A stretch of 64,000 nucleotides of DNA from a virus, in IMG/VR virus record IMGVR_UViG_3300035698_019747, positions 88,403 through 152,402 of that record; one strand, 5' to 3'. The translations under genes were made by a program, and so were the position numbers. The number at the start of each line of letters is the position of its first letter. Within the stretch, counting starts at the first letter, position 1. The notes under the pieces were generated by a model, which saw only the letters and a list, made by a program, of their open reading frames with translations, did no database searches and was not told where the DNA came from. Below, in pieces: positions 14,151 to 57,471 of the stretch.

Positions 14151-15173
14151 ATGAAAAAAGCTTTAATATTTGGTATCACAGGACAAGATGGTTCTTATTT
14201 ATCTGAACTACTCTTACAAAAGGGATATGAAGTACATGGGGTTAAAAGACGGAGTTCTTCTTTTAATACTGAAAGGATCAATCACTTATATAATGACACG
14301 CACAATGAAACTGATTTTTATTTACATTATGGTGACTTAGCTGATACATCTAGTATTATAAATATATTACGGAAAGTGTCACCCGATGAAGTTTATAACC
14401 TAGCAGCTCAAAGCCATGTCAAAGTTTCGTTTGAAATACCTGAATATACTTCTGATATAGATGCAATAGGAACACTTAGAATATTAGAAGCAATAAGGTC
14501 ATTAGACCTTAACACACGCTTCTATCAAGCATCTAGCAGTGAAATGTACGGAGATGTATTAGAAAGTCCACAAACAGAGAAAACAGGGTTTAATCCACAA
14601 TCACCATATGCAGTGGCTAAGGTATATGCCCATTTTATTACTAAGAATTATAGAGAGAGTTATAAAATGTTTGCTTGCTCAGGTATACTATTTAATCACG
14701 AGTCACCCAGAAGAGGTGAAACGTTTGTTACAAGGAAAATAACTATGGCTGTTGCTAATATTTATACTGGCAGACAAGAGTGTTTATATTTAGGTAATTT
14801 GGATGCACATAGGGATTGGGGACATTCCAAAGATTATGTTAAAGCAATGTGGATGATGTTACAACAAGAAAATCCAGAAGATTATGTTATTTCTACGAAT
14901 GAAACACATAGTGTAAGACAGTTTTGTGAAATGGCATTTAATGAATTAGATATCAATATATCATGGGAAGGTGAAGGATTAGATGAGGTAGGGAAAGATG
15001 AAGATGATAATATCATAATTAGAATAGATCCTAACTATTTTAGACCTTCTGAGGTAGTGTACTTATTAGGGGATTCTAGTAAGGCAAGGGATAAATTGGG
15101 ATGGTTTCCTGAAATTAGCTTCAAAGAACTCGTTAAAGATATGGTACGTTTTGATTTAACAAATAATAATTAA
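14151..15173 (+). CDS. gmd: GDP-mannose 4,6-dehydratase
   Basis: [60 protein letters not shown]; start moved to ATG 14151. Confidence 0.97.
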
Positions 15174-15183
15174 AATAAATATT

Positions 15184-15429
15184 ATGAAAAAGTTATTTTT
15201 AATATTACTTAATAAATATACAGATACTAAAAGTGGGCGCATGGAAATACTTAAAATAGTTGATAAAGGGGTATATCGTGAATACTATGAACAAACCAAC
15301 TTTGGTAATCTATATAATGCATATATAGAGTTTTTAATGGCTAATGACCTTATTAAACGTATCACTAAAAATAAAGATTATAGAGAAATAGATATGATTA
15401 GAAAAGGTATGCATAAGGCATTTGATTAA
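15184..15429 (+). CDS. hypothetical protein
   Basis: 81-aa ORF. Confidence 0.5.
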   Translation: MKKLFLILLNKYTDTKSGRMEILKIVDKGVYREYYEQTNFGNLYNAYIEFLMANDLIKRITKNKDYREIDMIRKGMHKAFD

Positions 15430-15519
15430 ACTATAAGATTTTTAGAAAAACCCAACTAAGTTCTAAATATTATCCCTATATTTGTACTCTAATCTAACAA
15501 CAGCTAAATATTACATATT

Positions 15520-15708
15520 ATGAGACCGATGAGCGATGAACCAGAAAATATGACAAGAGTTCTTTTACTTGGTAAAAATGGTATAACATTATCATTTCAT
15601 TTTTATAAGGATGGTATGTTTCAGGAAGATAATAGTTCTAATTGGAATTTACCCAGTGAGTTTAAATCTTGGGTGTCTATTAAGGAGTTAAAAAGTATAA
15701 TTTTATAA
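15520..15708 (+). CDS. hypothetical protein
   Basis: 62-aa ORF after TATATTTG (15477-15484). Confidence 0.55.
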   Translation: MRPMSDEPENMTRVLLLGKNGITLSFHFYKDGMFQEDNSSNWNLPSEFKSWVSIKELKSIIL

Positions 15709-15738
15709 TAAATAAATTACCTAAGTAATTCAATTTAT

Positions 15739-16161
15739 ATGAAAGTTGACCAAACTATAGTTGTACTAAACGACCATATTTGGTATGATAATGGGAATGC
15801 TAAAACTGTTTGTGTTTCTTCTTGCCTAATGTATTTTGGCATTAGACCAAATAAGTATCATTATACTGGAACTACTAAAAATAGATTTGCATATAAGCAA
15901 ATACTTAGACGACTTGGATATAACGTTCGTTCTCGTAAAAGTGAGTTTAAAATAGGTAAATTTTCGAAAGATATGCCTACTATGACTGAACTAAAATCAA
16001 GGCTACGTAAGTCTAATTATACTGATAATGATAAGTTTTTAGTATGTGGTTTTCAGAAAGGAAGTGCACACCTTATGGTACTAGATGGTAAAGGGGATAT
16101 AATAGTAGATACTGCTCCCCAAAAGAAGTGGAGAATTGAGGATATTTGTTTAGTTTATTAA
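15739..16161 (+). CDS. hypothetical protein, possible papain-like (Cys-His-Asp) fold
   Basis: TVCVSSCL...AHLMVLDG...IVDT spacing. Confidence 0.4.
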   Translation: MKVDQTIVVLNDHIWYDNGNAKTVCVSSCLMYFGIRPNKYHYTGTTKNRFAYKQILRRLGYNVRSRKSEFKIGKFSKDMPTMTELKSRLRKSNYTDNDKFLVCGFQKGSAHLMVLDGKGDIIVDTAPQKKWRIEDICLVY

Positions 16162-16227
16162 TTAATTAACTAAACTTTATCCAAAAATATTAATATAAGA
16201 GAGAGAGAAATTTTATATATATACGTT

Positions 16228-16296
16228 ATGAGAAAAATGATTTTAAATACTACATTATTAAGCATCAGCATTATTTTATTATTAATGGTGTATTGA
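16228..16296 (+). CDS. attenuator leader peptide (Leu/Ile-rich, 22 aa: MRKMILNTTLLSISIILLLMVY)
   Basis: 6 TTA Leu and 4 ATT/ATC Ile codons; directly upstream of a terminator and the tRNA-Leu(TAA)/tRNA-Ile(GAT) pair. Confidence 0.85.
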   Translation: MRKMILNTTLLSISIILLLMVY

Positions 16297-16321
16297 GTCA
16301 GTATTGAAAAATTTTTCAACG

Positions 16322-16354
16322 CCCGACTCTTAATAAGTGTCGGGTTTATTTTTT
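16322..16354 (+). terminator. attenuator terminator upstream of tRNA-Leu/tRNA-Ile
   Basis: CCCGAC-N11-GTCGGG followed by TTTATTTTTT; the 5' arm can instead pair with TATTGAGTC (16291-16299). Confidence 0.85.
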
Positions 16355-16360
16355 ATATAT

Positions 16361-16446
16361 GGTTGAGTGGTGGAATTGGTAGACACGAGGGGTTTAAAAC
16401 CCCTTGGTCAGAAATGATCGTGCGGGTTCGAGTCCCGCCTCGACTA
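16361..16446 (+). tRNA. tRNA-Leu(TAA)
   Basis: Acceptor GGTTGAG/CTCGACT, anticodon arm AGGGG-TTTAAAA-CCCCT, long variable arm, GTTCGAGTC T loop; CCA not encoded. Confidence 0.95.
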
Positions 16447-16464
16447 CTAAAAATCACATATTTT

Positions 16465-16538
16465 AGTCTAGTAGCTCAGTTGGTTAGAGCGTTTCCCTGA
16501 TAAGGAAAAGGTCGCAGGTTCAAGTCCTACCTAGACTA
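16465..16538 (+). tRNA. tRNA-Ile(GAT)
   Basis: AGTCTAG/CTAGACT, GCTC/GAGC D stem, TTTCC-CTGATAA-GGAAA; CCA not encoded. Confidence 0.95.
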
Positions 16539-16557
16539 CTAATTAAATATAATTATT

Positions 16558-16932
16558 ATGACAAGTAGAGATTTTTGCTTTTGGTTACAAGGTATATTAG
16601 AAGTTACCGAGTTAGATAAATTTAATGAAAGACAAACACATATCATTAAAACCCATCTGTCTCTTGTATTTAAACACGAGATTAATACTGATTTATCAAT
16701 GATTAAACATTTTATGGCTAGGGATTTTTGTTTCTGGTTAGATGGGGTATTTAGTGGAACTGAGTTTCTATGTTTAAATAAACCCCAAATGGTGATGATT
16801 TCTGCTAAATTATCACCAGTATTTAAACATGATATTGATCCTAGTATGGGTGATATTGAACACCAGGAAGGACTAAATAATATACATAGCTGGGATAGTG
16901 ACCCCAATTCTGATGTTAATATGAGATGTTAA
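16558..16932 (+). CDS. hypothetical protein with internal duplication
   Basis: Two copies of M..RDFCFWL.G...TE....N..Q...I...LS.VFKH.I. Confidence 0.75.
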   Translation: MTSRDFCFWLQGILEVTELDKFNERQTHIIKTHLSLVFKHEINTDLSMIKHFMARDFCFWLDGVFSGTEFLCLNKPQMVMISAKLSPVFKHDIDPSMGDIEHQEGLNNIHSWDSDPNSDVNMRC

Positions 16933-16975
16933 TTCTACAAAGTAGTATATTTATTTTAAGATAAAACCTTCAATT

Positions 16976-17209
16976 ATGATGAAATATAATGAATTACCCA
17001 AAGAAATATTATCCCCTATATCTGGTGATAAAATGAGGTTAATGGACAAGTACTACCCAAATGAATGTTTTATGTCAATAGTTAATAACTATCAAGATTC
17101 TGCTGAGTTATATGAGAATTCCGCAGCAATGTATTTATCAGAAAATGGAGAAACGATATATGTCCCATTTGATAGTGGTGACATTCCCACTAATGAGAGT
17201 CCAAATTAG
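16976..17209 (+). CDS. hypothetical protein
   Basis: 77-aa ORF. Confidence 0.55.
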   Translation: MMKYNELPKEILSPISGDKMRLMDKYYPNECFMSIVNNYQDSAELYENSAAMYLSENGETIYVPFDSGDIPTNESPN

Positions 17210-17341
17210 ATAATGATAAAAGAAATAAAGGGACTTGTATTAGGTTTTTTTATCAAATTATATCGTATTAACCTTCATATAGTTTTGTAATATATATATA
17301 AATAGTTGTATATTTGCTGATATAATAACTAAAACCACATT

Positions 17342-17515
17342 ATGATGACAGCAAAATATTATAGCAAACCCGAAAACGTATTATTTTATGACCCGATTAC
17401 AAGATTGTTAGCAAGGATATTTGGGGCTAAACACTTTGTAATTAAATGTAGGGTTTGTGGAAAGATACCCACTGAAATATACGGAGATACTTGTTTAAGC
17501 CACAAAACTAAATGA
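17342..17515 (+). CDS. small Zn-finger-like protein (not in ORF track)
   Basis: MMTAKYY...CRVCG...TCLSH; follows TATATTTG at 17309-17316. Confidence 0.5.
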   Translation: MMTAKYYSKPENVLFYDPITRLLARIFGAKHFVIKCRVCGKIPTEIYGDTCLSHKTK

Positions 17516-17688
17516 GTGTATGTTTTAACATTAACATATAAGATGGATGTGAATGGTACTGTTATCGTGTCTACTGGTTGTTCTATAATGGAGTCAAGTT
17601 ACAAAAACTTAGAAATTATGAATACATATAGTAAAAACCAAAAAGCAATGTGATAAATAAACTTTTTTTTTTATTTTAATATAACAAT

Positions 17689-17958
17689 ATGGAAAACGAT
17701 TATTATATTAAACAAAAACATCTAGATAAACTAAAACATTGCTTAAAACTTATAAGTTATAGTGGTGATAGTTTAAAAGAATTATGTGCGGAGGAAAGGT
17801 CAGATATTGTTTATGGATTTGAAATAGGTAATGTAACATCTATGTTGAATAATTGTAAAATTATGATTATGAGTTTAGAAGAAGATATATCATTATATTT
17901 GAAGCATGTAGATAATGATAGTAATAAAACTAAGTACAATACTTCTGGTGATGATTAA
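17689..17958 (+). CDS. hypothetical protein
   Basis: 89-aa ORF after TAAAC-N16-ATATA. Confidence 0.6.
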   Translation: MENDYYIKQKHLDKLKHCLKLISYSGDSLKELCAEERSDIVYGFEIGNVTSMLNNCKIMIMSLEEDISLYLKHVDNDSNKTKYNTSGDD

Positions 17959-18007
17959 TATATGAAAAAATTTTTATATATTTGTAGTCTAACTTAATAA
18001 AACAAAA

Positions 18008-18205
18008 ATGAGTAATTTTTTAGATATAGATAACCTTCCAGATGACTTCAGTGGTGTTGTAATAGTTGATTATTCACCAGTAAGTGAAAGGATGTGGGAT
18101 AAAGGAGAACAAGCACTTGTCAGAGATGGTCAAATAAGACTAAGTGGGTGTTGGTTTAATTTTGATAATAGATATAAAGTTATTTCCAATAATTGGGTAC
18201 AGTGA
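18008..18205 (+). CDS. hypothetical protein
   Basis: 65-aa ORF after TATATTTG (17977-17984). Confidence 0.6.
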   Translation: MSNFLDIDNLPDDFSGVVIVDYSPVSERMWDKGEQALVRDGQIRLSGCWFNFDNRYKVISNNWVQ

Positions 18206-18228
18206 ACTAGATGTTATAGTAATTTATT

Positions 18229-18597
18229 ATGGATAAGGAAAGTATATTTGAATTACAAAAAATAGATTGTAATTGCAATGATTGTATATTTATGATACGT
18301 GATTTAGAAAAGTATAAAGCTTCTGTCAAATTTCATCACGCTATACAATTGGAATATTTTAACAGTGTTAAATCAAAGTTGATTAAAAGAGCTAACTGGT
18401 GGCGAGTTAAGAAGAATGATTTAGAAAATTTTAATGATATTATGACTGAGGCAGACTCAATGGTTTTTCAATTTGATAAAAATGTAGTGTCTATTAATTA
18501 TGGTGACTGTAGTAAGTTAAATAAGAAAGTTTCTTTTATACCTAATACAATACAATTAGAAACACAAGATTGCTTTAAGCATAGAAGAGAATTATAA
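18229..18597 (+). CDS. Cys-rich hypothetical protein
   Basis: DCNCNDC...GDC...CFKHR. Confidence 0.65.
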   Translation: MDKESIFELQKIDCNCNDCIFMIRDLEKYKASVKFHHAIQLEYFNSVKSKLIKRANWWRVKKNDLENFNDIMTEADSMVFQFDKNVVSINYGDCSKLNKKVSFIPNTIQLETQDCFKHRREL

Positions 18598-18601
18598 ATA
18601 C

Positions 18602-18679
18602 GGTGGGAGATTAGGCTATGTGGTAAGTAGCACAAGCCTTCTAAAAGCTTGGACAGGGGTTCGACTCCCCCTCTCACCA
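18602..18679 (+). tRNA. aberrant tRNA-like gene (Arg-TCT with 9-nt loop, or CTA suppressor-like)
   Basis: GGTGGGAG/CTCTCACC acceptor, GCTA/TAGC D stem, CAAGC-CTTCTAAAA-GCTTG, GGGG-TTCGACT-CCCC. Confidence 0.6.
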
Positions 18680-18815
18680 CTTATTTTTATATTTATATAA
18701 ACAAAAATACTTAAAATGATATAATGTTAAGTACCCGACTTTGGCGGTCTGGATAAGGGGACTTAAATTTTACCTTTTGAACTATCAGGATTAACAATTA
18801 AAATTAAAAATTATT

Positions 18816-19520
18816 ATGAAAGATGATTTAGGTAAAAGAATGAAAGAAAACTATGAAATAAGAACTCGTAGTTTTCTACCAAGAAGAACAAATGTCATTA
18901 TCCGTTTAGATGGTAAGGCATTTCACACTTATACAAAAGGATTGGATAAACCCTTTGACTATAAGTTAATGGATGATATGATGGAAACAACTAAATTTTT
19001 ATGTGAAAACATACAAGGTTGTAAAATTGGATACACCCAAAGCGATGAAATATCTTTACTCTTAACAGATTATGATAACATCAAAACTTCATCTTGGTAT
19101 GATGGTCAAGTTCAGAAAATCACAAGCGTGTCAGCTAGTTTAGCTACCGCTAAATTTAACCAACTTAGACCAGAGAAATTAGCATTTTTCGATAGCAGAG
19201 TTTTCGTAATTCCTGATAAAGAAGAAGTCGTGAATTATTTTATTTGGAGACAACAAGATGCAACAAGAAATTCACTTTCTATGGCATCTCAGAGTGTTTA
19301 TTCCGATAAACAGTTGTTCAAAAAGAATTCTTCTGATAAACAAGAAATGCTAATGGAAAAGGGTATTAACTGGAATGATTATCCAGTGAGTGCTAAAAGA
19401 GGTAGTAGCGTGATTAGAAAAACTTTTGATTACGAAGAAACCACAAGGAGTAAATGGGACTATACTGACATTCCTATCATAACCAAAGATAGGGATTTTA
19501 TACTCGATTTACTGCCTTAA
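18816..19520 (+). CDS. tRNA(His) guanylyltransferase Thg1-like protein
   Basis: IIRLDGKAFH, YTQSDEISL, FDSR, YFIWRQQDATRNS, KGINWN. Confidence 0.95.
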   Translation: MKDDLGKRMKENYEIRTRSFLPRRTNVIIRLDGKAFHTYTKGLDKPFDYKLMDDMMETTKFLCENIQGCKIGYTQSDEISLLLTDYDNIKTSSWYDGQVQKITSVSASLATAKFNQLRPEKLAFFDSRVFVIPDKEEVVNYFIWRQQDATRNSLSMASQSVYSDKQLFKKNSSDKQEMLMEKGINWNDYPVSAKRGSSVIRKTFDYEETTRSKWDYTDIPIITKDRDFILDLLP

Positions 19521-26809: not shown

Positions 26810-26817
26810 ATTTCTTG

Positions 26818-26911
26818 TCTAGAGAACGGGATTTGAACCCGTGGAGCATACTATCTGTGTACACTCAGCCGTTTCCAAGACGACTTGCTTAAACCACTCG
26901 CACATCTCTAG
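26818..26911 (-). tRNA. tRNA-Pro(TGG) with long class-II-type variable arm
   Basis: CTAGAGA/TCTCTAG+A, GTCGT-CTTGGAA-ACGGC, 8-bp variable stem GAGTGTAC/GTATGCTC. Confidence 0.8.
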
Positions 26912-26915
26912 TTTG

Positions 26916-26988
26916 TCGGGAAGGTAGGAATCGAACCTACTAACTGATGCTTCCAATGCACCCGTGCTTAAACCTTAGTCACTTCCCG
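26916..26988 (-). tRNA. tRNA-Pro(TGG), weak D arm
   Basis: CGGGAAG/CTTCCCG+A, GGTGC-ATTGGAA-GCATC, GTAGG-TTCGATT-CCTAC. Confidence 0.75.
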
Positions 26989-26996
26989 ATATTTTG

Positions 26997-27070
26997 TATA
27001 GTAGGTGGGATTCGAACCCACGTGCTCCACATCCCAAATGTGGCGAGATAAACCTCTCCTCTACTACTAT
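26997..27070 (-). tRNA. tRNA-Pro(TGG), A1-U72
   Basis: ATAGTAG/CTACTAT+A, CCACA-TTTGGGA-TGTGG, GTGGG-TTCGAAT-CCCAC. Confidence 0.88.
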
Positions 27071-27152: not shown

Positions 27153-27183
27153 AAAAAACCCACTCGGTTATGAGCGGGTTTTT
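27153..27183 (-). terminator. second attenuator terminator, immediately before tRNA-Gln
   Basis: Minus strand ACCCGCTC-ATAACC-GAGTGGGT followed by a T-run. Confidence 0.8.
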
Positions 27184-27202
27184 CTGTTATATATTGTATA
27201 TA

Positions 27203-27235
27203 ACAGAAAAGTCCTCTCATAAATGAGAGGACTTT
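27203..27235 (-). terminator. first attenuator terminator
   Basis: Minus strand AAAGTCCTCTCAT-TT-ATGAGAGGACTTT then TCTGTT. Confidence 0.8.
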
Positions 27236-27256
27236 GCTTTAAAAGTTTTAAAAATC

Positions 27257-27340
27257 TCAAGCAATAGTCTCCCATCCGAATAATCTCGGTTGCGGTTGCC
27301 ATTGCTGGTTGATAGTGATATTTAAAACTAAATTTTTCAT
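27257..27340 (-). CDS. attenuator leader peptide (Gln/Trp/Pro-rich, 27 aa: MKNLVLNITINQQWQPQPRLFGWETIA)
   Basis: CAG CAA TGG CAA CCG CAA CCG run; 3' end complementary to the terminator 5' arm; upstream of Gln/Pro/Pro/Pro/Trp tRNAs. Confidence 0.9.
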   Translation of the reverse strand: MKNLVLNITINQQWQPQPRLFGWETIA

Positions 27341-27408
27341 TACTGTATATATATTATTTTTGTTGTTCCTTTCTTAATTATAGTGCAAATATATGAAAAA
27401 GTTTTATA

Positions 27409-44957: not shown

Positions 44958-47900
44958 TTAATCACTCAATAAGTTATTATTTGAAGCTAGTGTTGCGTTA
45001 TTTGCAATGAATGTAGTACCAATAGTACTTTGGAATACTGATTCATCTACCACAATATTAGTATCCACAATATTAGTACCACCAATAAAATTAATATTAT
45101 CTGTCAATATGAAGTTTGAATCATCATAATCAATAGGTATAGAGGTGGCATAAAAAGGTATCTTAACCCTACTATCAACTACCCTAGTCTGAGTTTGATT
45201 AGCACTGCCCATATCAAATATATTCCACTGATACTCATTAGCCGTAATTGGATCGATATAATCCTTATAATTAAAGAATGGTATCTTATCTACCTCATAG
45301 TGCTTCATAGAGTAATATATAGGTGAATTTATATCATAAGTATTACTACTAGTTACACCAGTTGTGACGTTATTAAAATCTTTGGCGATAATTTTAACAG
45401 CATCTCTATATCCACCAAAGTTATTATACATAAAACTTCTCATAGTTAAACGCTGATCTATATTCTTACCAAAGTTGTTTATTTCACCACTTTTTCTACC
45501 ATCAAAGAAAGGAATAAAATCATTATCATATGAAGATATATATCCAGATGTAGAACTAGTTTCATATAATTCATTATAACCTTGACCAATTGTCAATTTA
45601 GGTAATTGAGTTGAACTGTAACTATATGTAGCTAAAATACTAATAGCGTTAGACCTATCATATGGGTTTATATAATTTATCTCATTCTTTTTCAATTCAG
45701 TATCTACCTCAACTAAATGATACCTATCTCTTGTCTTGAAAGTATTATGCCCAGATATTAAACTGCTACTTGCTCCATAGACATACATAAAGTTTTCATG
45801 TATAAACTGATCAGTAGCTACTTTAAATGTAACACCATCTGTACCAAACTCTCTTTTATATAAGCTATATGAACCAGAATTTAATATGTTAAATGTGGAT
45901 GGTCTATCAATATCACTATCGTTATTAGGTGACTTACTGAAATCAACATCATATAAAGTATTGAACTTTTTATATTTTGAGCCAAGTTCTAAACTATAAT
46001 CGATAAAACTATTTATATCATCTGGCTTAGTTACATATTTAAACCTACTCTTAGATGATAGTATATCATAACTTATATAACCAGCAGGGATATTGTACAT
46101 CTCAGTAGCAGTAGTACTTATTATAGATTTTCCAGATATGTGACTATCTACTATATTTTGGTTAAATAAACTACTAAAGTATTCAGGTTCATAAACGATA
46201 TCCATATCACTATTATAAATATACTGAACCACATTTCCTGAGGATGATATTGTACCACCTGTTCCCATTGATATGTTTTTATCACCATTCACACCCTGTA
46301 CTTCTAACTCAGTAGGACTGGTCATATCAAATGTAGTTAATGTAACATCATCAAAAAATCTCATATCTTGAATAACCCCTGAATGATATAAATCATTATA
46401 TTTCTCACCAAATTGTGGGGATATACTACTCGCATTTGAACTACGTGTATCAAAAGCACTCGCAATAGTATATTTTTTACTGATATATTTACCACCCTCA
46501 AACCTAGCCTGAATTATATGAGTATTTTCTATCTCAGTAGTTTTTCTATTACCCCTAATATAGGCATTATTCATAACCCCTTCAAAATAACCATTTAAAA
46601 ATGCACCATTTAACCAAATGTTTTTGGTAACATATATTAAGTGACGGTCACTATCTATTTCAATATTATCAATAGGGAAACTCTCTGTGTATTCTAATAC
46701 AATTCTATTGTTCTGTGGGACACGTTTAACTGAAAATACATCCTTAATTAGCTTTCTATCACCATTGATATCAATAGCAATTATATTACCAACTGTTACT
46801 TGGTCACCAACTTTTAGTTTGTTATAAGAATCACTAGAAGTCCCCTCAATATTGAAAGCACTCTCTAATACTATCTCCCATATATTCGCAGCTATTTTAA
46901 ATGATCTCTGTACATTATTGAAATGTATAACTGGTTCAGTTCTATATTTAGTCTTAACATTATCTGTATATAATGAATTTACCTGTACACTTGCAGTATT
47001 ACCACTCCCATAAGTAAATATTGTAATATTATTAGCATTATCATCTTCAATAAATGTACCCAAATCAGTACCTCTATATCCATTATTCCAAACCCCATTC
47101 TCAAAAATTCCCTTCATAAATGCCCCATTTCCAAATTGAGTATAAACACCACTCACATCTTGATAATCAGAAGGAACACTAACTGTCACATAACTATATG
47201 CGATACTATTATAACTCTCTTCTACATCTATTATATTACTATATGTTCCACCCACACTTGCTGTACCAATAGTTGAATTTAAATAATCACCACTCCAATT
47301 ATTCTTAATATGACCACCTAATGTATTATTATCAGTTTTGTAATTAACATCTACTGTCGCCTCATTAACATTTAATTGATATATATCAGTGAAATCATCC
47401 CCATTACTTGTGCCTGTAAATTCAACCTTTAAAACATATTCTAGGTTAACATCCACTTTAAAAGTATTTGTGACTGTTTGGTTATATGAGCTACTGTTTG
47501 CATTAAATAATAAATTATTACTAGATGTTCTAACACTATTAGTATATATATCATACTTAACTCTTAACACATAATTAGAAAGTGCAGCTGAAGGCTTCCA
47601 TTTTGAACTATTACTACTTGATAGTATCAATTGATACGTACCAGAACTATATTTCTTAACATCTGTTAATAATAGGTTAAAGTTATATGGGGATCTAACT
47701 TGATTGATATTTAAATTATCAGATATAAAAGTTAAATCATATCTATTACTAGCAGTTGCACTATTTACTAATGATGCTCTATATTCTTCAATAGGTGAAT
47801 TAATAATCACATTATCAAAATCTGAACCTAAGTCATGTCCAATAAAATCATAACCTGTTATTGAACTACTACCCTCTAATAAGTTCCAAACATATAATCT

Positions 47901-50900
47901 ATCGTCTTGTAAACGAGAAGCATTATTTGATAAAATGTCAGTTACAAAAGGTGTATACATATAATCACTAAAATAATCACTAATATATTCAAATGGATTT
48001 GGTGTAGAATCATTATTATAAACATTTGATATTGTGAAATTAGCACCATACCAGTTACCATTTCTAAATCTACCATTTTCCCAAATAACTGAAAATGCTG
48101 ATATATAGTTAGCGATTCCTTTTTTAAATTTAGAACCAATCATTGTACCATTATTAAACACTCCATTATTCCAATCTGAGTAGAAGAACATACCATTATT
48201 AAACACCCCATTTTCCCAAACAGTGTTTGTAGTATTTCTATCAAATTCAAAATTCATAGATGATAAATCACCAAGTTCAAAATCACCTCTTTTTACATAT
48301 GGGTTAAATATAGAGTTATCAAAGCTACCATTACTAAATGTACCTGATAACCACACACTCTGATCAAAAACACCATCAGAATCGTTATATGAACCATTCA
48401 ACCACAGTACTTTACTAAACTTAGAACCCCTCGATACTTGTCTACCATATTTATCTTGGTTAAAGAAACCAATTTGTAAATTTTCCACTGCTACTGAGCT
48501 ATCTAAATTACTTATACTAGGTGATACCTCACCATCTACCCACAAACCGAACCAATTATTATTAGAAGTAGTTTTCTTATAACCTAATTGACTTGAAGAC
48601 TGTGTAGCGACTAACCCCACTTCTATATCACTTATATAATTATCGATTGTTAGTTGGGCATTAAATCCCTTATAAATATTAGTTAGGCTAGTCTGAGATT
48701 GAGTCATACCAGAACCATTAAATTCACCAGATATAAATACACCATTCTTCCATACTTTACCGTAGAACTTACCCCCATTAAATGTACCTGTTTTCCATGA
48801 GGGATTAGCGTTACCGACATTTTTACTATCTCCAAATTCACCCCTATTAAATACCCCATCTTCCCAAGCATATAATGAAGTATATGTGTGATTAGTTCCA
48901 GATATAGTTGCTCCTATAAATATACTCTGGGTCACATAGGTTGAACCATCATATACTTTAGACACTTGTGTATCTTGTATGAATATTTGAGCACCAATTA
49001 CGTTTGATTTTTTAAGAGGGTGTTCTTTTGTTTTATCAACATTTTCAATATCTATTGGTTTAAGTTGAATATATAAATCACTAATATCACCATCAGTAAA
49101 CTCCTTTATTATCCTTTCCCCGAACCCATGTGCAGATCCATTATCACTAAATGTATCTACTACCGAACTTTCAGTACTGGGGAATAAATATTTAACCTGA
49201 CCATCATTAGTATCAAGTACTAACGTCCCAATGTTATTAAAACTATTATCACCATATATATCACGGAAAGATGATATAGTATTATTATTTAAAAAAGAAT
49301 CATATACGTTATTGCCATAATCAAAAACTAATTCTTCACCACTTTGGGTACCTGCAATACTAGAAAAATCATATTCCCCCCATATTATACCTAAATGTCT
49401 ACCATAAGTAGATGCAAAAATACCATTATTAAATATACCATTTTTCCATATAACTGATCCAATAATCTTCCCATTATTAAATGTACCATTTTCCCATATA
49501 GTCACATGATTATTTATAGAGCTGAATATACCACTATCAAATGTACCATTTTTCCACACGATATTTCCTGTATTCACATACTTATTGGTAGTTAAAATAT
49601 AATCACTTGCATATATACTATTCACTGTGGATAATTGATCTGAATTATCGCCAAAGACACCATTTCTAAAAGTACCATCTTTCCACACACCATTTCTAAA
49701 TACATTATTTATATTAGAAGAGGTGATATCACCAAATACTCCACCATCCCATACACCACCTAGAAATTCACTATTGCTAAACTGACCACCACTATGCGTT
49801 CCAGATAACCAAACAGATTTACCTATATATCCATCAGTAAACGTACCATCATGCCAAGCAGGTATTATTGCCTTATTACCTACTGTATAGAAAATATTAT
49901 TAATTGGTATTAAGTTATCTTCTGTATCATATTTACCATTAATAAATTTACCTGAGATATGGTTTCCACTTAAAACAGCAGACCTTTCAATATATGAATT
50001 AATAATATTAACATTCTGAAATGTTTGTTTATATGCGTTACCAGTGAAATTCATATTAGAGGTTGTCACATAATCACCTGTTAAGTGACCATGTAATAGG
50101 TGACCATTATATATCTCCACATTATCATTAATACTTATCTCAGATCGAATAAGTGATAACCTTCTAAGGTTTTTATGGTTCAAATCATTTAAACTAAACC
50201 CTTGGTTATTTACTTCTACATTTTTAAAGGATTGGTTTTTAAAGACACCACCATTTACCTTTAATGTATTATTTATTCCATCAATTCTATTACTGTTCAA
50301 AAAGGTCTTATCACTTATTAAGTTAACAAAACTCTGACTATATGTGAAATTTAAATTATATGGAATTAATTCATTTGATGCTCCTATGTGATAGTTACCA
50401 CTTATATCATTTGATAAAGTAGTATCCCATGTATTATTTAACCAATATACCTCATCCGTTTTTAATATTTCATTTAATAGTTCATAATTTCCATAGTTCA
50501 TACTAATTGACATCGTTCCTGATGTAGATGAACTAGCAGTTCCTGATAAAAATGTATTTGCTAATTGATCAGCATTAAATATAGAACCATTAACCCAAGT
50601 ACCACCATTTATCCAAGAGTTATTAAAGTGTCTTATTTGAATAGTAGAATCGCTATTTAAAGCAGTTATTTTAAGCGAATTGTCACTTTTAAGTGCATTA
50701 TTATATATAGAACTATCTGATCCATATTCAATAGTATCTGAAACAATTTCTAAATCTATTGAAAAATTTGATATAAAACTAGTATTATCAATGACAAGGT
50801 TTGAACCATCATATTTTATTGTAGTTTTTGTAGAATTTTCTAATTTATTTTTTCTAGTTATTATAACTTTGAAGCTAGTTTCCTTAAAATTATTACTCAC

Positions 50901-53900
50901 AATTTCATTAAAGTTTTCATAAACATCTTGATAAAACCCATCTACACCACTCATAACATAGAATAATTTATCTAATATATTTGTGTAATAAGGGCTACTA
51001 GTTTTAACTGAATTAAATATTACTTTATCTTTAAATTTTAATTTCATAAAGTCTTTTTCTGATATGAAGAATTTATGAATATGTATTATATCTTGATCAG
51101 ATACATTATTCCTGATATTATACCACTTATCATAGTCTAGTACTTTAATATCACCTTTATTCTCAACTATACCATTGGTCATTTTACTATCATAAACATC
51201 AGTGTTCACAATAGTAGTATTTTCATTTATATTTGAACTATAAATTTCAGATTCTTCAATAAATGTGTTATTTATTAAATTACTTCTAAATATTGAATTA
51301 TAAGCATGTAAGTTAGATATATCAATCTCACTATAACTATAAGTGCCTGAATTACTATAAATATTATTCAAAAGAGAACCCTCATCAGATCCTATTTGAG
51401 AATTAATAGCATTTGCATTTATAATAATTGCCTTTTCAATAACACTATCTATAATATAGTTATATCCATAACTAGCGTTATTATCCAAGTTCATTATAGT
51501 TGATACTCTATTACCTATCAATTCCGAATAATAGTTTTTACTTAAAATAATATCACTTTTTGAATCCATTTTACCAGACACCCACGTAGAATTATAAAAT
51601 ATACCATTTCTCCAATTAACATTATCTCCATCCCATATACCATTTGTGTCTTTATCCCCAAATATTCCATCATTAAATGTTGAATTATTAAAAGAACCCT
51701 GATTAACTTTAGCCTTTGTTAAATAAGCATTTTCATAACTTGAATCTTTAGACCATATTTTAGTAGTGTCATTAAACTTATATACTTTCCCCTTATCATA
51801 TGATATACCATCATATGATAAATCGTCCATTATTAACAATCTATTATTCTTGAAAATATCACTATTTAATGGTATATTATTATTATCTACATTAACAGTA
51901 TAATAAATATTATTAATTATATCAAAGCTATATTCAAACATGAAAATACCATTCTCAGTTGCTGCCCATATTCTGTTCACATCACCAATCTTTTCAAATA
52001 TTGTTTTCTTAACACTATTAGATGGTAAATCATCTCCAAAAATTGATGTAGTTGTTTTTAATTGAATACTAGTATAATTTTCTATAAATTTTTGTAAAAG
52101 GTAAATTCCATTATTAGTAGAACCCCCCAGTACATTAAACCTGGGAGAGCTATCACTAGAAGATATTGCCCATGTATTATCCTTTACACTTATATGAGAT
52201 GGACTTTCTACTTGATTTAACTCTTTATTAAATGTATATACCACATTATTTAAAACATTTAAGCTATAAATATAATCACCACTCATGCTTATAATAGGAT
52301 ATTTTCCATCTATAATATTAGAATTGGTTTCCATATCAAACGTTCTATCCTCACCTATATTACTAAGTTGTACCGGTGAATCTTGTGTTAGTTTTTTTAT
52401 TACTATATGTGCTTGTGGAAACCCATTTTGCATTTGGTTTAAAAATGTAGTATTATTAGCCAATAATTGGTGGTTAAAGTTAGCATATAAATAATATATA
52501 TTACCTGATGAAGATGTTATTAGATATTTTGAATAATATATACCACCATTTGATTGTATTATTTGTGAACCACCTGTATTTACAGCATATCCAATACCAA
52601 GACCCAAATTTATTTTCTCTGTTCCTAATAGCTTTATATCCGTAAAATTTAGAACTTCGTTATATGTTATATCTATAAAAGGGTTAAAACTAGTAGCCGC
52701 CCAAACACCACTTGTATATTTATCATATACCTCTTTAGATATACTAAAACCATTACCCATATATGATAAATCATTATTATAATCATACCAAGTTCCACTA
52801 TAACTATATAAATATATACCACCATATTCACTATCTGATGATGGATCAGTTGCAGAAAAGTTCCTGCCCAATATAGCTACCTCAATGTTATTTGATATAT
52901 CCTCAACATTCTCGAAATAATTAACATTAATACTAGAAGCCCTACCAATTCCATTGAAACTAGCATAACTGGGAACAATAAAACACTCATCATTACTTTT
53001 AGGAAAATGTAAATTGCTTAGTGGGTATGAGAGTGAGCCTTCGGAACTAGATAAAACGAAGTATGGACTAGTTAATGCATTACTATTATTATAACCCAGT
53101 GATGCTATACTAAAAGTTGCGCCCTCATTATTAGGCATTGGCATTTGATTAGAATTTGTTCTGTTATAAAAACCAATTGTTGAAAAGTTATCAGCGGTTA
53201 TTGGTTCATCAAATCCTACTATAAAAGTATCAGACATATCTACGCTATAGGTGAGTCCACTTTCTACAATAATACCTATATTATTCATATAGTTAAATTG
53301 ACCAGAAACATTACTTGGTAATTTAATAGTCGTATTTATACCTCGCCTGTTTCCCAGAAATCCTTTGAATATTGACCCAATAACATCATTCTGATCAGTA
53401 TCAGTTAATGGAGTAGATATATTTGCTAAGGTTCTTTTATTAAATTCCCATATATTAGTTGGTTGATCTTCAGCATTTGCAGTAATAGCATAAATAAAAT
53501 CATTAGTACTATTATAAATATGCTCAATGTCAGTAATATAATCACCATTACTATTACCAATAGTAGTACTTCCAGTATTACCATTAGTTCCTGATATAGA
53601 ATAAACATCAACTTCGGCTAACTTAAATTTAAGCGCACTACTAGAAAAAACTTGTCCTCTATTTACACTAAATGTGAGCCCAGGGGCTTGATCATAATAA
53701 GACTTAAAGAACTTCCCATTTGTGTTATTTTCAATAGTATGTGGCATATTCTCAATCGTAGAAAATAAGATATTGTTATTATTAGTACTGTATTTGTAAC
53801 CAGATTTTTCTGATAAGTTATAATTATTACTAGTGTTTTCATATCTAAATTTAGATAAACTATCCACTAAATATACCTTAGTATAATCCTCATAATCACC

Positions 53901-54176
53901 TATCTCCCAAACTGTTTCTTCTCTATAAGGTATATCTAATACAATACTATTATTTGTTATCTCTAATATCTTATATCCAGTTGTTCCATATTGGTATTCA
54001 TCTATATTTAATAAATCTGTATTATCATAATTCCCATTTGTTATATAAACATAATTACCCACTAATAATTCAGTATTTATTTCTGTGTAAAACTTTGTAT
54101 AAGCCACACCATTTAAGGTATAACTCTCAGTCTTATTAATTAATTTAGATGAATATGTTTCCTGAATAACAGACAT
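44958..54176 (-). CDS. giant (3072 aa) probable virion protein with W.NG.F.NG-type repeats
   Basis: S/T/N/G-rich; many WxxGxFxxGxF 5-residue-periodic units; TTAATATATA at 54205-54196. Confidence 0.7.
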   Translation of the reverse strand: MSVIQETYSSKLINKTESYTLNGVAYTKFYTEINTELLVGNYVYITNGNYDNTDLLNIDEYQYGTTGYKILEITNNSIVLDIPYREETVWEIGDYEDYTKVYLVDSLSKFRYENTSNNYNLSEKSGYKYSTNNNNILFSTIENMPHTIENNTNGKFFKSYYDQAPGLTFSVNRGQVFSSSALKFKLAEVDVYSISGTNGNTGSTTIGNSNGDYITDIEHIYNSTNDFIYAITANAEDQPTNIWEFNKRTLANISTPLTDTDQNDVIGSIFKGFLGNRRGINTTIKLPSNVSGQFNYMNNIGIIVESGLTYSVDMSDTFIVGFDEPITADNFSTIGFYNRTNSNQMPMPNNEGATFSIASLGYNNSNALTSPYFVLSSSEGSLSYPLSNLHFPKSNDECFIVPSYASFNGIGRASSINVNYFENVEDISNNIEVAILGRNFSATDPSSDSEYGGIYLYSYSGTWYDYNNDLSYMGNGFSISKEVYDKYTSGVWAATSFNPFIDITYNEVLNFTDIKLLGTEKINLGLGIGYAVNTGGSQIIQSNGGIYYSKYLITSSSGNIYYLYANFNHQLLANNTTFLNQMQNGFPQAHIVIKKLTQDSPVQLSNIGEDRTFDMETNSNIIDGKYPIISMSGDYIYSLNVLNNVVYTFNKELNQVESPSHISVKDNTWAISSSDSSPRFNVLGGSTNNGIYLLQKFIENYTSIQLKTTTSIFGDDLPSNSVKKTIFEKIGDVNRIWAATENGIFMFEYSFDIINNIYYTVNVDNNNIPLNSDIFKNNRLLIMDDLSYDGISYDKGKVYKFNDTTKIWSKDSSYENAYLTKAKVNQGSFNNSTFNDGIFGDKDTNGIWDGDNVNWRNGIFYNSTWVSGKMDSKSDIILSKNYYSELIGNRVSTIMNLDNNASYGYNYIIDSVIEKAIIINANAINSQIGSDEGSLLNNIYSNSGTYSYSEIDISNLHAYNSIFRSNLINNTFIEESEIYSSNINENTTIVNTDVYDSKMTNGIVENKGDIKVLDYDKWYNIRNNVSDQDIIHIHKFFISEKDFMKLKFKDKVIFNSVKTSSPYYTNILDKLFYVMSGVDGFYQDVYENFNEIVSNNFKETSFKVIITRKNKLENSTKTTIKYDGSNLVIDNTSFISNFSIDLEIVSDTIEYGSDSSIYNNALKSDNSLKITALNSDSTIQIRHFNNSWINGGTWVNGSIFNADQLANTFLSGTASSSTSGTMSISMNYGNYELLNEILKTDEVYWLNNTWDTTLSNDISGNYHIGASNELIPYNLNFTYSQSFVNLISDKTFLNSNRIDGINNTLKVNGGVFKNQSFKNVEVNNQGFSLNDLNHKNLRRLSLIRSEISINDNVEIYNGHLLHGHLTGDYVTTSNMNFTGNAYKQTFQNVNIINSYIERSAVLSGNHISGKFINGKYDTEDNLIPINNIFYTVGNKAIIPAWHDGTFTDGYIGKSVWLSGTHSGGQFSNSEFLGGVWDGGVFGDITSSNINNVFRNGVWKDGTFRNGVFGDNSDQLSTVNSIYASDYILTTNKYVNTGNIVWKNGTFDSGIFSSINNHVTIWENGTFNNGKIIGSVIWKNGIFNNGIFASTYGRHLGIIWGEYDFSSIAGTQSGEELVFDYGNNVYDSFLNNNTISSFRDIYGDNSFNNIGTLVLDTNDGQVKYLFPSTESSVVDTFSDNGSAHGFGERIIKEFTDGDISDLYIQLKPIDIENVDKTKEHPLKKSNVIGAQIFIQDTQVSKVYDGSTYVTQSIFIGATISGTNHTYTSLYAWEDGVFNRGEFGDSKNVGNANPSWKTGTFNGGKFYGKVWKNGVFISGEFNGSGMTQSQTSLTNIYKGFNAQLTIDNYISDIEVGLVATQSSSQLGYKKTTSNNNWFGLWVDGEVSPSISNLDSSVAVENLQIGFFNQDKYGRQVSRGSKFSKVLWLNGSYNDSDGVFDQSVWLSGTFSNGSFDNSIFNPYVKRGDFELGDLSSMNFEFDRNTTNTVWENGVFNNGMFFYSDWNNGVFNNGTMIGSKFKKGIANYISAFSVIWENGRFRNGNWYGANFTISNVYNNDSTPNPFEYISDYFSDYMYTPFVTDILSNNASRLQDDRLYVWNLLEGSSSITGYDFIGHDLGSDFDNVIINSPIEEYRASLVNSATASNRYDLTFISDNLNINQVRSPYNFNLLLTDVKKYSSGTYQLILSSSNSSKWKPSAALSNYVLRVKYDIYTNSVRTSSNNLLFNANSSSYNQTVTNTFKVDVNLEYVLKVEFTGTSNGDDFTDIYQLNVNEATVDVNYKTDNNTLGGHIKNNWSGDYLNSTIGTASVGGTYSNIIDVEESYNSIAYSYVTVSVPSDYQDVSGVYTQFGNGAFMKGIFENGVWNNGYRGTDLGTFIEDDNANNITIFTYGSGNTASVQVNSLYTDNVKTKYRTEPVIHFNNVQRSFKIAANIWEIVLESAFNIEGTSSDSYNKLKVGDQVTVGNIIAIDINGDRKLIKDVFSVKRVPQNNRIVLEYTESFPIDNIEIDSDRHLIYVTKNIWLNGAFLNGYFEGVMNNAYIRGNRKTTEIENTHIIQARFEGGKYISKKYTIASAFDTRSSNASSISPQFGEKYNDLYHSGVIQDMRFFDDVTLTTFDMTSPTELEVQGVNGDKNISMGTGGTISSSGNVVQYIYNSDMDIVYEPEYFSSLFNQNIVDSHISGKSIISTTATEMYNIPAGYISYDILSSKSRFKYVTKPDDINSFIDYSLELGSKYKKFNTLYDVDFSKSPNNDSDIDRPSTFNILNSGSYSLYKREFGTDGVTFKVATDQFIHENFMYVYGASSSLISGHNTFKTRDRYHLVEVDTELKKNEINYINPYDRSNAISILATYSYSSTQLPKLTIGQGYNELYETSSTSGYISSYDNDFIPFFDGRKSGEINNFGKNIDQRLTMRSFMYNNFGGYRDAVKIIAKDFNNVTTGVTSSNTYDINSPIYYSMKHYEVDKIPFFNYKDYIDPITANEYQWNIFDMGSANQTQTRVVDSRVKIPFYATSIPIDYDDSNFILTDNINFIGGTNIVDTNIVVDESVFQSTIGTTFIANNATLASNNNLLSD

Positions 54177-56532: not shown

Positions 56533-57471
56533 TTATAACTCTTTATAAGTGTTATTCTTACCATCAATAATAAATGATTTACATTCATTATTAGCTGCAT
56601 AATCATATCCTTCTTGCCACCACTTAGCCATAAGCTCTTGGTCAAATAAAAGAGAATTATTAGTCAATCGCCTTTTAAGATAATGCATATTAACCTTAAC
56701 TTTTTTAGTTGCGTAATGTGATAAATAATCCAAATCTATTTGCTGTTCCCTGATTCCACGCATCATAAGTAATAATACACGTATCTGATAATGAAAATAG
56801 TTTCTGATGTGCTCAATTACCCAATTATCATCTTCTTTCTCTAGTATGATAACATCAATCTCATCACACCCATCCATTATAGCTTGTTTAAGGGGTACTT
56901 GAACCAAAATACCACCATCAGTATAATGTGACCCTTCTATAACTGCTATACTCATAAAGGGAGGGGCACATGTTGATGCCCATAACCAATCTGAAAATTG
57001 CTCATAAGTATAATCATTAATATCCTTTTCCTCTGATTCCCCCGTAGAAATATTAGTGACCATTATCTTCACTATTTTACCACTTTCTAATATTTTTAGA
57101 TAATCCCTTTCTGGGAAGAATTTAGGTATTAAATCTGTTCTGACTTTAGTTGTATCACCTAGTGAAGATTGTTTTTTAAAAAATAAGTTTTTTGCTACGT
57201 TCTTAAAATTAATAGTGTATTTAAAAATTCCATTATTATGACTCTGTATTTTAAAGGGGTTTAATGTGAATACATCTTCTGTAGATACACTCATCATAGC
57301 TGTTTTCAACTTATTATAATTGTTAGTAGCCGCGAATGGGACAACTAGTGACCCTGTTGATGATCCATATAGATTGTCATAGCTTATACCATTTTGTATG
57401 TAATATTCAACTATACCACCAGCATATGCCCCCTTGCTACCACCAACACTAACTACTAGCCCTCTTTTCAT
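56533..57471 (-). CDS. patatin-like phospholipase
   Basis: GGSKG, GSSTG (catalytic Ser), DGG. Confidence 0.9.
   Translation of the reverse strand: MKRGLVVSVGGSKGAYAGGIVEYYIQNGISYDNLYGSSTGSLVVPFAATNNYNKLKTAMMSVSTEDVFTLNPFKIQSHNNGIFKYTINFKNVAKNLFFKKQSSLGDTTKVRTDLIPKFFPERDYLKILESGKIVKIMVTNISTGESEEKDINDYTYEQFSDWLWASTCAPPFMSIAVIEGSHYTDGGILVQVPLKQAIMDGCDEIDVIILEKEDDNWVIEHIRNYFHYQIRVLLLMMRGIREQQIDLDYLSHYATKKVKVNMHYLKRRLTNNSLLFDQELMAKWWQEGYDYAANNECKSFIIDGKNNTYKEL

Follow-up and report, generated by a model that had tools for sequence, protein, structure and literature searches.

A putative leader-peptide attenuator upstream of tRNA-Leu and tRNA-Ile genes in a large phage

The tRNA-Leu/tRNA-Ile locus and its surroundings

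The window analysed here, a stretch of 64,000 nucleotides, spans positions 88403-152402 of an IMG/VR virus record (IMGVR_UViG_3300035698_019747; linear, 152 kb, estimated completeness 56 %), which we treated as a large tailed phage. The GC content of the phage DNA is 27-31 %. The locus of interest comprises two tRNA genes on the plus strand preceded by a small leader ORF. The first gene encodes tRNA-Leu with anticodon UAA (16361-16447), which decodes TTA and TTG, and the second tRNA-Ile with anticodon GAU (16465-16539), which decodes ATT and ATC but not ATA. An earlier note on this DNA had placed both tRNAs downstream of the leader, and both were recovered by ARAGORN and Rfam; CCA is not encoded in the tRNA genes here. 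The leader ORF (16228-16296, +) consists of 22 codons and a stop, with ATG at 16228 and TGA at 16294-16296. Its Leu codons (positions 6, 10, 11, 17, 18 and 19) are TTA in all six cases, whilst its four Ile codons (positions 5, 13, 15 and 16) read ATT, ATC, ATT and ATT with ATA absent, as the earlier note had described. That note had also called ATA common in the genome, and it indeed accounted for 52.6 % of Ile codons in window ORFs of at least 100 aa; in the same ORFs, TTA made up 58.8 % of Leu codons and ATT plus ATC 47 % of Ile codons.

Codons cognate to tRNA-Leu(UAA) and tRNA-Ile(GAU) accounted for 10 of 21 codons in the leader, against 2.15 expected (P = 1.5e-5). As a control for AT bias, 745 ATG-started ORFs of 16-36 codons, taken from all six frames of the record, were ranked by their fraction of such codons. 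The leader ranked first of the 745; the runner-up, a chance ORF, reached 8/18 (0.44) and the mean cognate fraction was 0.15. Given this runner-up the margin is narrow, and composition alone is not overwhelming for the Leu/Ile leader. The abundance in AT-rich DNA of small ORFs full of TTA and ATT codons, and a leader peptide hydrophobic enough to resemble a membrane helix, would suit a different reading of the locus, in which the hairpin before the tRNAs is a constitutive terminator or a processing or stability element, the ORF is a chance occurrence or encodes a membrane peptide, and the tRNAs are expressed from an unrecognized promoter or by leaky readthrough. We consider this reading improbable, for reasons of spacing, structure and recurrence given below.

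Upstream of the ORF is a promoter-like element (16172-16199, +) composed of AAACTTT, a 15-nt spacer and TATAAG. The corresponding motif class (AAACTTT, a spacer of 14-16 nt and TATAAT or TATAAG) had 12 matches in the record, mostly just 5' of genes; among them are sites before all three leaders of this genome and before several ordinary genes, and examples besides 16172-16199 are those at 27404 (-) and 30985 (+). A terminator and promoter scan of 15000-19000 flagged no terminator and returned sigma-70-like sites at chance frequency, and was uninformative here. As a generic sigma-70 scan performs at chance level in such AT-rich DNA, the promoter assignment is one that we infer. A TATA-like run before tRNA-Leu was considered as that gene's own promoter and rejected, since it abuts tRNA position 1 and a start 6-8 nt further on would fall inside the acceptor stem.

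No Shine-Dalgarno signal was detected anywhere in the genome, and the sequence 5' of start codons is A-rich and G-poor. The start context of the leader is instead a TATATATATAC run located 3 nt 5' of its ATG (16214-16227, +). TATATA-type motifs of this kind (often AATATATA), located 1-8 nt and most commonly 4 nt before ATG, gave 43 motif matches for ORFs of at least 60 aa, corresponding to approximately 35-40 distinct genes, the three leaders and some very large genes among them. The Leu/Ile leader ORF therefore has the same start context as these real genes, and its translation is predicted. The motif may act in translation initiation, or it may be a late promoter whose mRNAs would be nearly leaderless. 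Separately, the promoter-motif spacer of the two sister leaders described below contains TATATTTG, a sequence similar to the -7 element of Bacteroidota (TAnnTTTG); together, the absent Shine-Dalgarno signals and TAnnTTTG-like motifs hint at a Bacteroidota host.

Most large proteins in the window had no PHROG or Pfam match. Matches included a DNA methyltransferase, an SSB-like protein, a Thg1-like tRNA-His guanylyltransferase (18816-19520, +; Pfam Thg1, E = 9e-29) and a patatin-like lipase (phospholipase, 56533-57471, -; Pfam, E = 7e-18), among others. A 3072-aa ORF (44958-54176, -) has no function assigned. The Thg1-like gene is situated 2.3 kb 3' of the Leu/Ile tRNAs, such that tRNA-maturation or repair functions adjoin the phage's tRNA genes. 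A tRNA with a CUA anticodon, of the amber-suppressor type and labelled 'Pyl' by ARAGORN, was found at 18605-18678 (+), directly 3' of an ORF at 18229-18597 and with no leader in front. Genome-wide recoding of TAG as an explanation for this tRNA was not supported, with TAG read as sense raising coding coverage only from 0.835 to 0.847. Another promoter-like element (TATATTTGC...TATAAT; 17290-17345, +) is present upstream of an ORF at 17342, so the small genes 3' of the tRNAs are probably not all under the attenuator and have a promoter of their own.

Terminator, antiterminator and the predicted ribosome-position switch

An intrinsic terminator (16321-16354, +) separates the leader ORF from tRNA-Leu. 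Its hairpin (16321-16346) has a GC-rich stem of 7 bp that continues, past a 1x1 mismatch, into three additional pairs, and a U-tract occupies 16345-16354. Folding predicted -13.4 kcal/mol for the hairpin (z = -5.2); its internal mismatch is why the simple scan passed over it. Only 6 nt lie between the end of the U-tract and the tRNA, too few to accommodate a separate tRNA promoter, which counts against a constitutive terminator with independently expressed tRNAs.

An antiterminator (16295-16329, +) was predicted to form by pairing of GAGUC (16295-16299) with GACUC (16325-16329) and of GU (16301-16302) with GC (16321-16322). It overlaps the stop codon and encloses a 16-nt palindromic AU hairpin (16304-16319). 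The minimum free energy (MFE) of 16291-16335 was -10.7 kcal/mol (z = -4.9), a value matched by none of 200 shuffles, and the pairs around the hairpin in this structure were the GAGUC/GACUC helix, G16301-C16322 and U16302-G16321, a core of only 5 + 2 bp. Formation of the GAGUC/GACUC helix ties up five nucleotides of the 7-nt main 5' arm of the terminator, rendering the two structures mutually exclusive in prediction. In the earlier note, TATTGAGTC (16291-16299) was proposed to pair with GACTC-TT-AATA (16325-16335). Both motifs lie at exactly these positions and the GAGUC/GACUC core of the pairing was present in the MFE structure, whereas the UAUU/AAUA extension was absent. This antiterminator had also been described as weaker than that of the second cluster, correctly so (-10.7 versus about -17 kcal/mol).

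Equilibrium folding of the full leader gave a terminator probability of about 0.87 at every ribosome position and hence no discrimination between positions. Such thermodynamic dominance would be expected of a constitutive terminator. If there is a switch, it must be kinetic, as the terminator always wins at equilibrium and only folding of the nascent RNA discriminates; in the classical trp attenuator the terminator is likewise favoured at equilibrium. We folded the RNA as it stands just before the terminator 3' arm emerges, with positions -15 to +12 relative to the A-site codon masked as ribosome-covered. For every A-site position as far as Leu19, the terminator 5' arm was sequestered (about 0.65-0.69 paired), and with the A site at codons 20-22 or the stop its pairing fell to 0.04-0.27. 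The boundary was unchanged at downstream footprints of +9 to +14 and moved two codons upstream at +16. That the antiterminator is positioned to switch as soon as the final regulatory codon has been passed argues against a merely constitutive element. The Leu/Ile leader is missing the anti-antiterminator (1:2 protector hairpin) that its sister leaders have, and its antiterminator forms without a ribosome, so the untranslated transcript is predicted to read through. An anti-antiterminator is common to classical attenuators, and we treated it as non-essential to the mechanism.

Alternative terminator and antiterminator structures with isoacceptor specificity are also found in T-boxes, and an RNA-only switch of the T-box or riboswitch type, binding uncharged tRNA or another ligand with no need for translation, was accordingly weighed. 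The leader measures approximately 130 nt in all, too short for a T-box, and displays no specifier-loop or T-box motif architecture; moreover, the signal that tracks the tRNAs resides in in-frame codons. The T-box covariance model had no match in the window at gathering score, nor in 16100-16400 at E up to 10. No Rfam family, leader families included, matched the Leu/Ile leader at gathering score, and nothing meaningful appeared at E up to 10, with only the tRNAs matching at gathering and permissive thresholds. We regard an RNA-only switch as highly improbable.

Sister leaders, homologous leaders and codon choice

The record has three multi-tRNA clusters, and each of the three is preceded by a promoter-class motif, a TATATA-type start context, a leader with a similar start and one or two terminators. 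The second attenuator in the window (27153-27340, -) has a Gln/Trp/Pro codon run in a leader ORF at 27340-27257, followed by two terminators and a cluster of tRNA-Gln(UUG), three tRNAs with UGG anticodons and tRNA-Trp (27150-26737, -). The third leader, with a Ser/Arg run, is found at record positions 53831-53908 before tRNA-Arg(ACG) and four tRNA-Ser genes. In the Gln/Trp/Pro leader 8 of 26 codons were cognate to the cluster (P = 1.5e-5; rank 2 of 745 for its own codon set), as were 9 of 24 in the Ser/Arg leader (P = 1.2e-4; rank 1 of 745). Comparison of leaders with the wrong clusters gave much lower or no enrichment, the best being 6/26 (P = 0.04). A sister leader could be aligned with the Leu/Ile leader through the TATATATATAC region and first codons. 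Both sister peptides are hydrophilic, with similar 5' regions and first residues and a composition that tracks their own tRNA cluster, which is difficult to reconcile with a chance ORF or membrane peptide at the Leu/Ile locus. In both sister leaders the antiterminator was predicted only whilst the ribosome is on the regulatory run and disappeared once the ribosome had moved past the final regulatory codon; for RNA with no ribosome, a protector hairpin was predicted. The earlier note's identification of an attenuator is thus well supported in silico by the promoter-class motif, leader ORF, terminator, position-dependent antiterminator and recurring layout. The three UGG tRNAs (26817-27070, -) displayed architectures unusual for tRNA-Pro, including a 95-nt species with a long variable arm (26817-26911, -) and one detected by Rfam only, at 37 bits (26916-26988, -).

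No orthologue of the Leu/Ile leader was found in IMG/VR or INPHARED, nor any close relative of the phage. The upstream 140-aa protein had no IMG/VR relatives, a pattern search based on tRNA-Leu returned 0 matches, and blastn against INPHARED matched the gene for a nearby GDP-mannose dehydratase only. This dehydratase and the downstream 124-aa protein led only to distant phages (≤66 % identity), mostly without the leader design, and a DNA pattern derived from the common 5' UTR and leader start returned 85 mostly unrelated loci. Use of the Thg1-like protein as an anchor yielded 80 jumbo-phage loci. For 31 parent records the tRNA clusters were mapped, and each cluster was screened for leaders, which were chosen at the amino-acid level with a terminator required.

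Leaders of the same design were identified in six further jumbo-phage records (L168, L170, L175/L176, L177, L183 and L186). L168 carried three, all on the minus strand: one with a Leu/Gln/Arg core (12735-12655) ahead of tRNAs Arg(ACG), Leu(UAG), Leu(UAA) and Gln; one with an Ile/Lys/Ser/Val core (3274-3197) ahead of Lys, Val, Ile(GAU) and Ser(UGA); and one with a Trp/Pro/Tyr/Cys core (1218-1120) ahead of Tyr, Pro, Pro, Trp and Cys. L170 carried a leader with the core LLQQLQLLQL (3681-3601, -) before three Gln and four Leu tRNAs, and another (13233-13129, -) before Tyr, Thr, Tyr, Pro, Pro and Ala. A Tyr/Lys core in L175 (1508-1443, -) was followed by Tyr, Lys, Lys and Lys, and a Pro/Gln/His core in L176 (7215-7298, +) by Pro(UGG) and Pro(CGG). 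The remaining leaders were found in L177 (1803-1705, -) before Pro(UGG), in L183 (533-670, +; core Asn/Ile) before Cys and two Ile(GAU), and in L186 (5856-5984, +) before Phe, Lys, Pro, Pro, Ala, Trp and Gln. An N-terminal pattern of Met, Lys/Arg, x, x, Val/Ile, x, Asn, Ile/Val was common to six leaders, that of the window included. An automated ribosome-mask test gave a clean switch in roughly 4-5 of the 10 homologous leaders, the others being ambiguous.

No such leaders were present in the tRNA-rich, Thg1-carrying jumbo phages L112, L119, L138 and L153 or in the G018 and G021 records. Approximately 60 tRNA clusters from cyanophage-like and other unrelated lineages were mostly without the design, with two weak candidates. 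Presence in six further jumbo-phage records and absence from most others indicate that the design is clade-specific rather than a by-product of tRNA neighbourhoods, and its recurrence in other phages is a further argument against a constitutive terminator. Small ORFs were also observed on unrelated phage contigs, one Tyr-rich before tRNA-Tyr (L222, ~1083, +) and one Ser/Arg-rich before tRNA-Arg(UCU) and tRNA-Ser(UGA) (L236, ~975, +); these may be independent instances of the leader idea or chance. Short ORFs (16-21 codons) that contain Thr runs and have an 'LWMV' motif in common were seen on other IMG/VR contigs, namely L004 (2087, +), L031 (5168, +), L048 (-) and L054 (-), after a ATATATATAC start context and with no tRNA within 700 nt downstream, and may be leaders of another kind.

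Codon choice was tested conditional on the amino acid under strict wobble rules (U34 = A/G, G34 = C/U, A34 = U/C/A). Across the three leaders of this genome, all 14 informative codons were ones that the downstream anticodons read, where 7.4 would be expected (P = 4.8e-5), comprising Leu 6/6, Ile 4/4, Arg CGT and CGC, and Pro CCG twice. The Arg codons were used though AGA dominates and CGN forms just 18 % of Arg codons, and CCG though it constitutes 0.07 % of all codons. In leaders of the other phages 43 of 57 codons were cognate (33.7 expected, P = 0.005), and CTA appeared in Leu leaders only where tRNA-Leu(UAG) follows; for Leu, Ile, Arg and Ser codons alone the count was 20/28 (16.8 expected, P = 0.12). 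For the Leu/Ile leader by itself the evidence from synonymous choice is modest (P about 0.68^6 x 0.47^4 = 0.005), in keeping with a caveat of the earlier note that TTA and ATT are favoured by AT bias, TTA being the commonest Leu codon.

These figures bear on the alternative that the element is a true leader-peptide attenuator that senses Leu/Ile supply or general translation speed, its TTA, ATT and ATC codons merely following AT bias. The background frequencies of these codons, the modest value for the single leader and the lack of significant cognate bias for Leu, Ile, Arg and Ser codons in other phages are compatible with it, as is the Gln/Trp/Pro sister leader, whose three non-regulatory Ile codons also avoid ATA though no Ile tRNA follows. 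The complete codon match in this genome weighs the other way, since it includes the very rare CGT, CGC and CCG that AT bias disfavours; furthermore, the targets are tRNAs and not biosynthetic enzymes, and extra tRNA would bring no relief of amino-acid starvation. We judge this alternative unlikely. Codon-level matching is, on these statistics, real in the leader family and probable in the Leu/Ile leader itself. The earlier note had proposed a sensor specific for the isoacceptor rather than the amino acid: the codon-level match is favoured statistically within this genome and among the other phages, but the 'rather than' is beyond the reach of sequence, because what a ribosome stalled on TTA reflects is the level of charged tRNA-Leu(UAA), and this level drops when either the tRNA or leucine is short. 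With the decoding tRNAs as products, feedback on tRNA supply would be the more coherent function.

Proposed mechanism and comparison with known systems

Taken together, the favoured reading is that a ribosome-mediated (leader-peptide) transcription attenuator controls the phage's tRNA-Leu(UAA) and tRNA-Ile(GAU) genes, to which we assign a probability of roughly 75 %. The sequence and computations above show which elements are present, that terminator and antiterminator exclude one another in prediction, how the codons are distributed and that the layout recurs. Beyond this, the model supposes that the leader is translated, that termination and readthrough take place in vivo and that what is limiting is the amount of tRNA and not the supply of amino acids. 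Transcripts would start from the phage promoter (near 16172-16199), and ribosomes would translate the 22 leader codons. Where TTA, ATT and ATC are decoded quickly, the ribosome would reach codons 20-22 or the stop and its footprint would lie over GAGUC (16295-16299). With GAGUC covered, the terminator hairpin (16321-16346) would form and RNA polymerase would halt in the U-tract, 6 nt before the tRNA. Where charged tRNAs are limiting, the ribosome would stall within the Ile/Leu run, which ends in three TTA codons, leaving GAGUC free to pair with GACUC in the terminator 5' arm; the terminator would then be unable to form, and polymerase would transcribe on into the tRNA genes. Because the sensing codons are read by the very tRNAs under control, the circuit would be a negative feedback loop on the supply of both isoacceptors, whilst exclusion of ATA and CTN from the leader would insulate the signal from other tRNAs. 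The phage would probably make its Leu/Ile tRNAs only when ribosomes run short of them.

We place at somewhat better than even the broader proposal that this jumbo-phage clade employs a codon-resolved, demand-driven tRNA supply, in which each cluster is autoregulated by its own leader peptide, composed of codons read by the tRNAs of that cluster, and the leaders form one homologous family, recognizable by a common N-terminal motif, in at least seven records. If so, the supply of each isoacceptor set could be raised on its own whenever it became limiting through phage translation or through loss of host tRNAs (e.g. to anticodon nucleases). Decoding speed at given codons would feed back directly on synthesis of the tRNAs that read them, providing a testable account of how a virus fits tRNA supply to its own codon demand, and a natural, compact, codon-specific sensor usable to report individual tRNA pools. 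The leader family is readily recognized and offers many natural variants for dissecting the codons that matter.

In bacteria, the control of tRNA genes is attributed chiefly to their promoters, through growth-rate and stringent control, and phage tRNA genes are usually regarded as constitutive cargo that offsets codon-usage differences or host tRNA loss. Our full-text literature search, which was of incomplete coverage, returned no report of leader-peptide or other attenuation control of tRNA genes, either phage or cellular. Clustering is shared with known phage tRNA genes, such as the T4 tRNA region and huge-phage arrays, whose polycistronic transcripts depend on RNase P and on the addition of CCA. 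T-box riboswitches resemble the present leader in isoacceptor-specific sensing and in a terminator/antiterminator choice upstream of translation-related genes, but they bind uncharged tRNA directly via a specifier codon and T-box bulge without translation, whereas here the sensing element is an in-frame codon run. The pheM leader of pheST provides a precedent for leader-peptide attenuation of a component of the translation apparatus, and its attenuator responds to charged tRNA levels; it controls phenylalanyl-tRNA synthetase in the host, in contrast to phage tRNA genes here.

The nearest counterparts are the leaders of amino-acid biosynthesis operons, including ilvL (ilvGMEDA), ivbL (ilvBN) and leuL, which conform to the trpL/hisL model of a short ORF, an intrinsic terminator and a choice dictated by ribosome position. 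The multivalent ilv leaders and the leu leaders are closest, sharing Ile/Leu codon runs and an antiterminator hairpin that shares the terminator 5' arm. The Leu/Ile leader differs from these in having neither a 1:2 protector hairpin nor a Shine-Dalgarno sequence, and it has no sequence similarity to them, as judged by the Rfam leader families. In leuL, codon choice (rare CUA codons) tunes sensitivity, whereas the Leu/Ile leader uses the commonest Leu codon of its genome. Phage tRNA genes, rather than biosynthetic enzymes, would be the regulated genes, and the loop would close on the decoding tRNA. In sum, our computational results point to a classical leader-peptide attenuator mechanism, in which the new features would be tRNA genes as the target and the closed loop that results.
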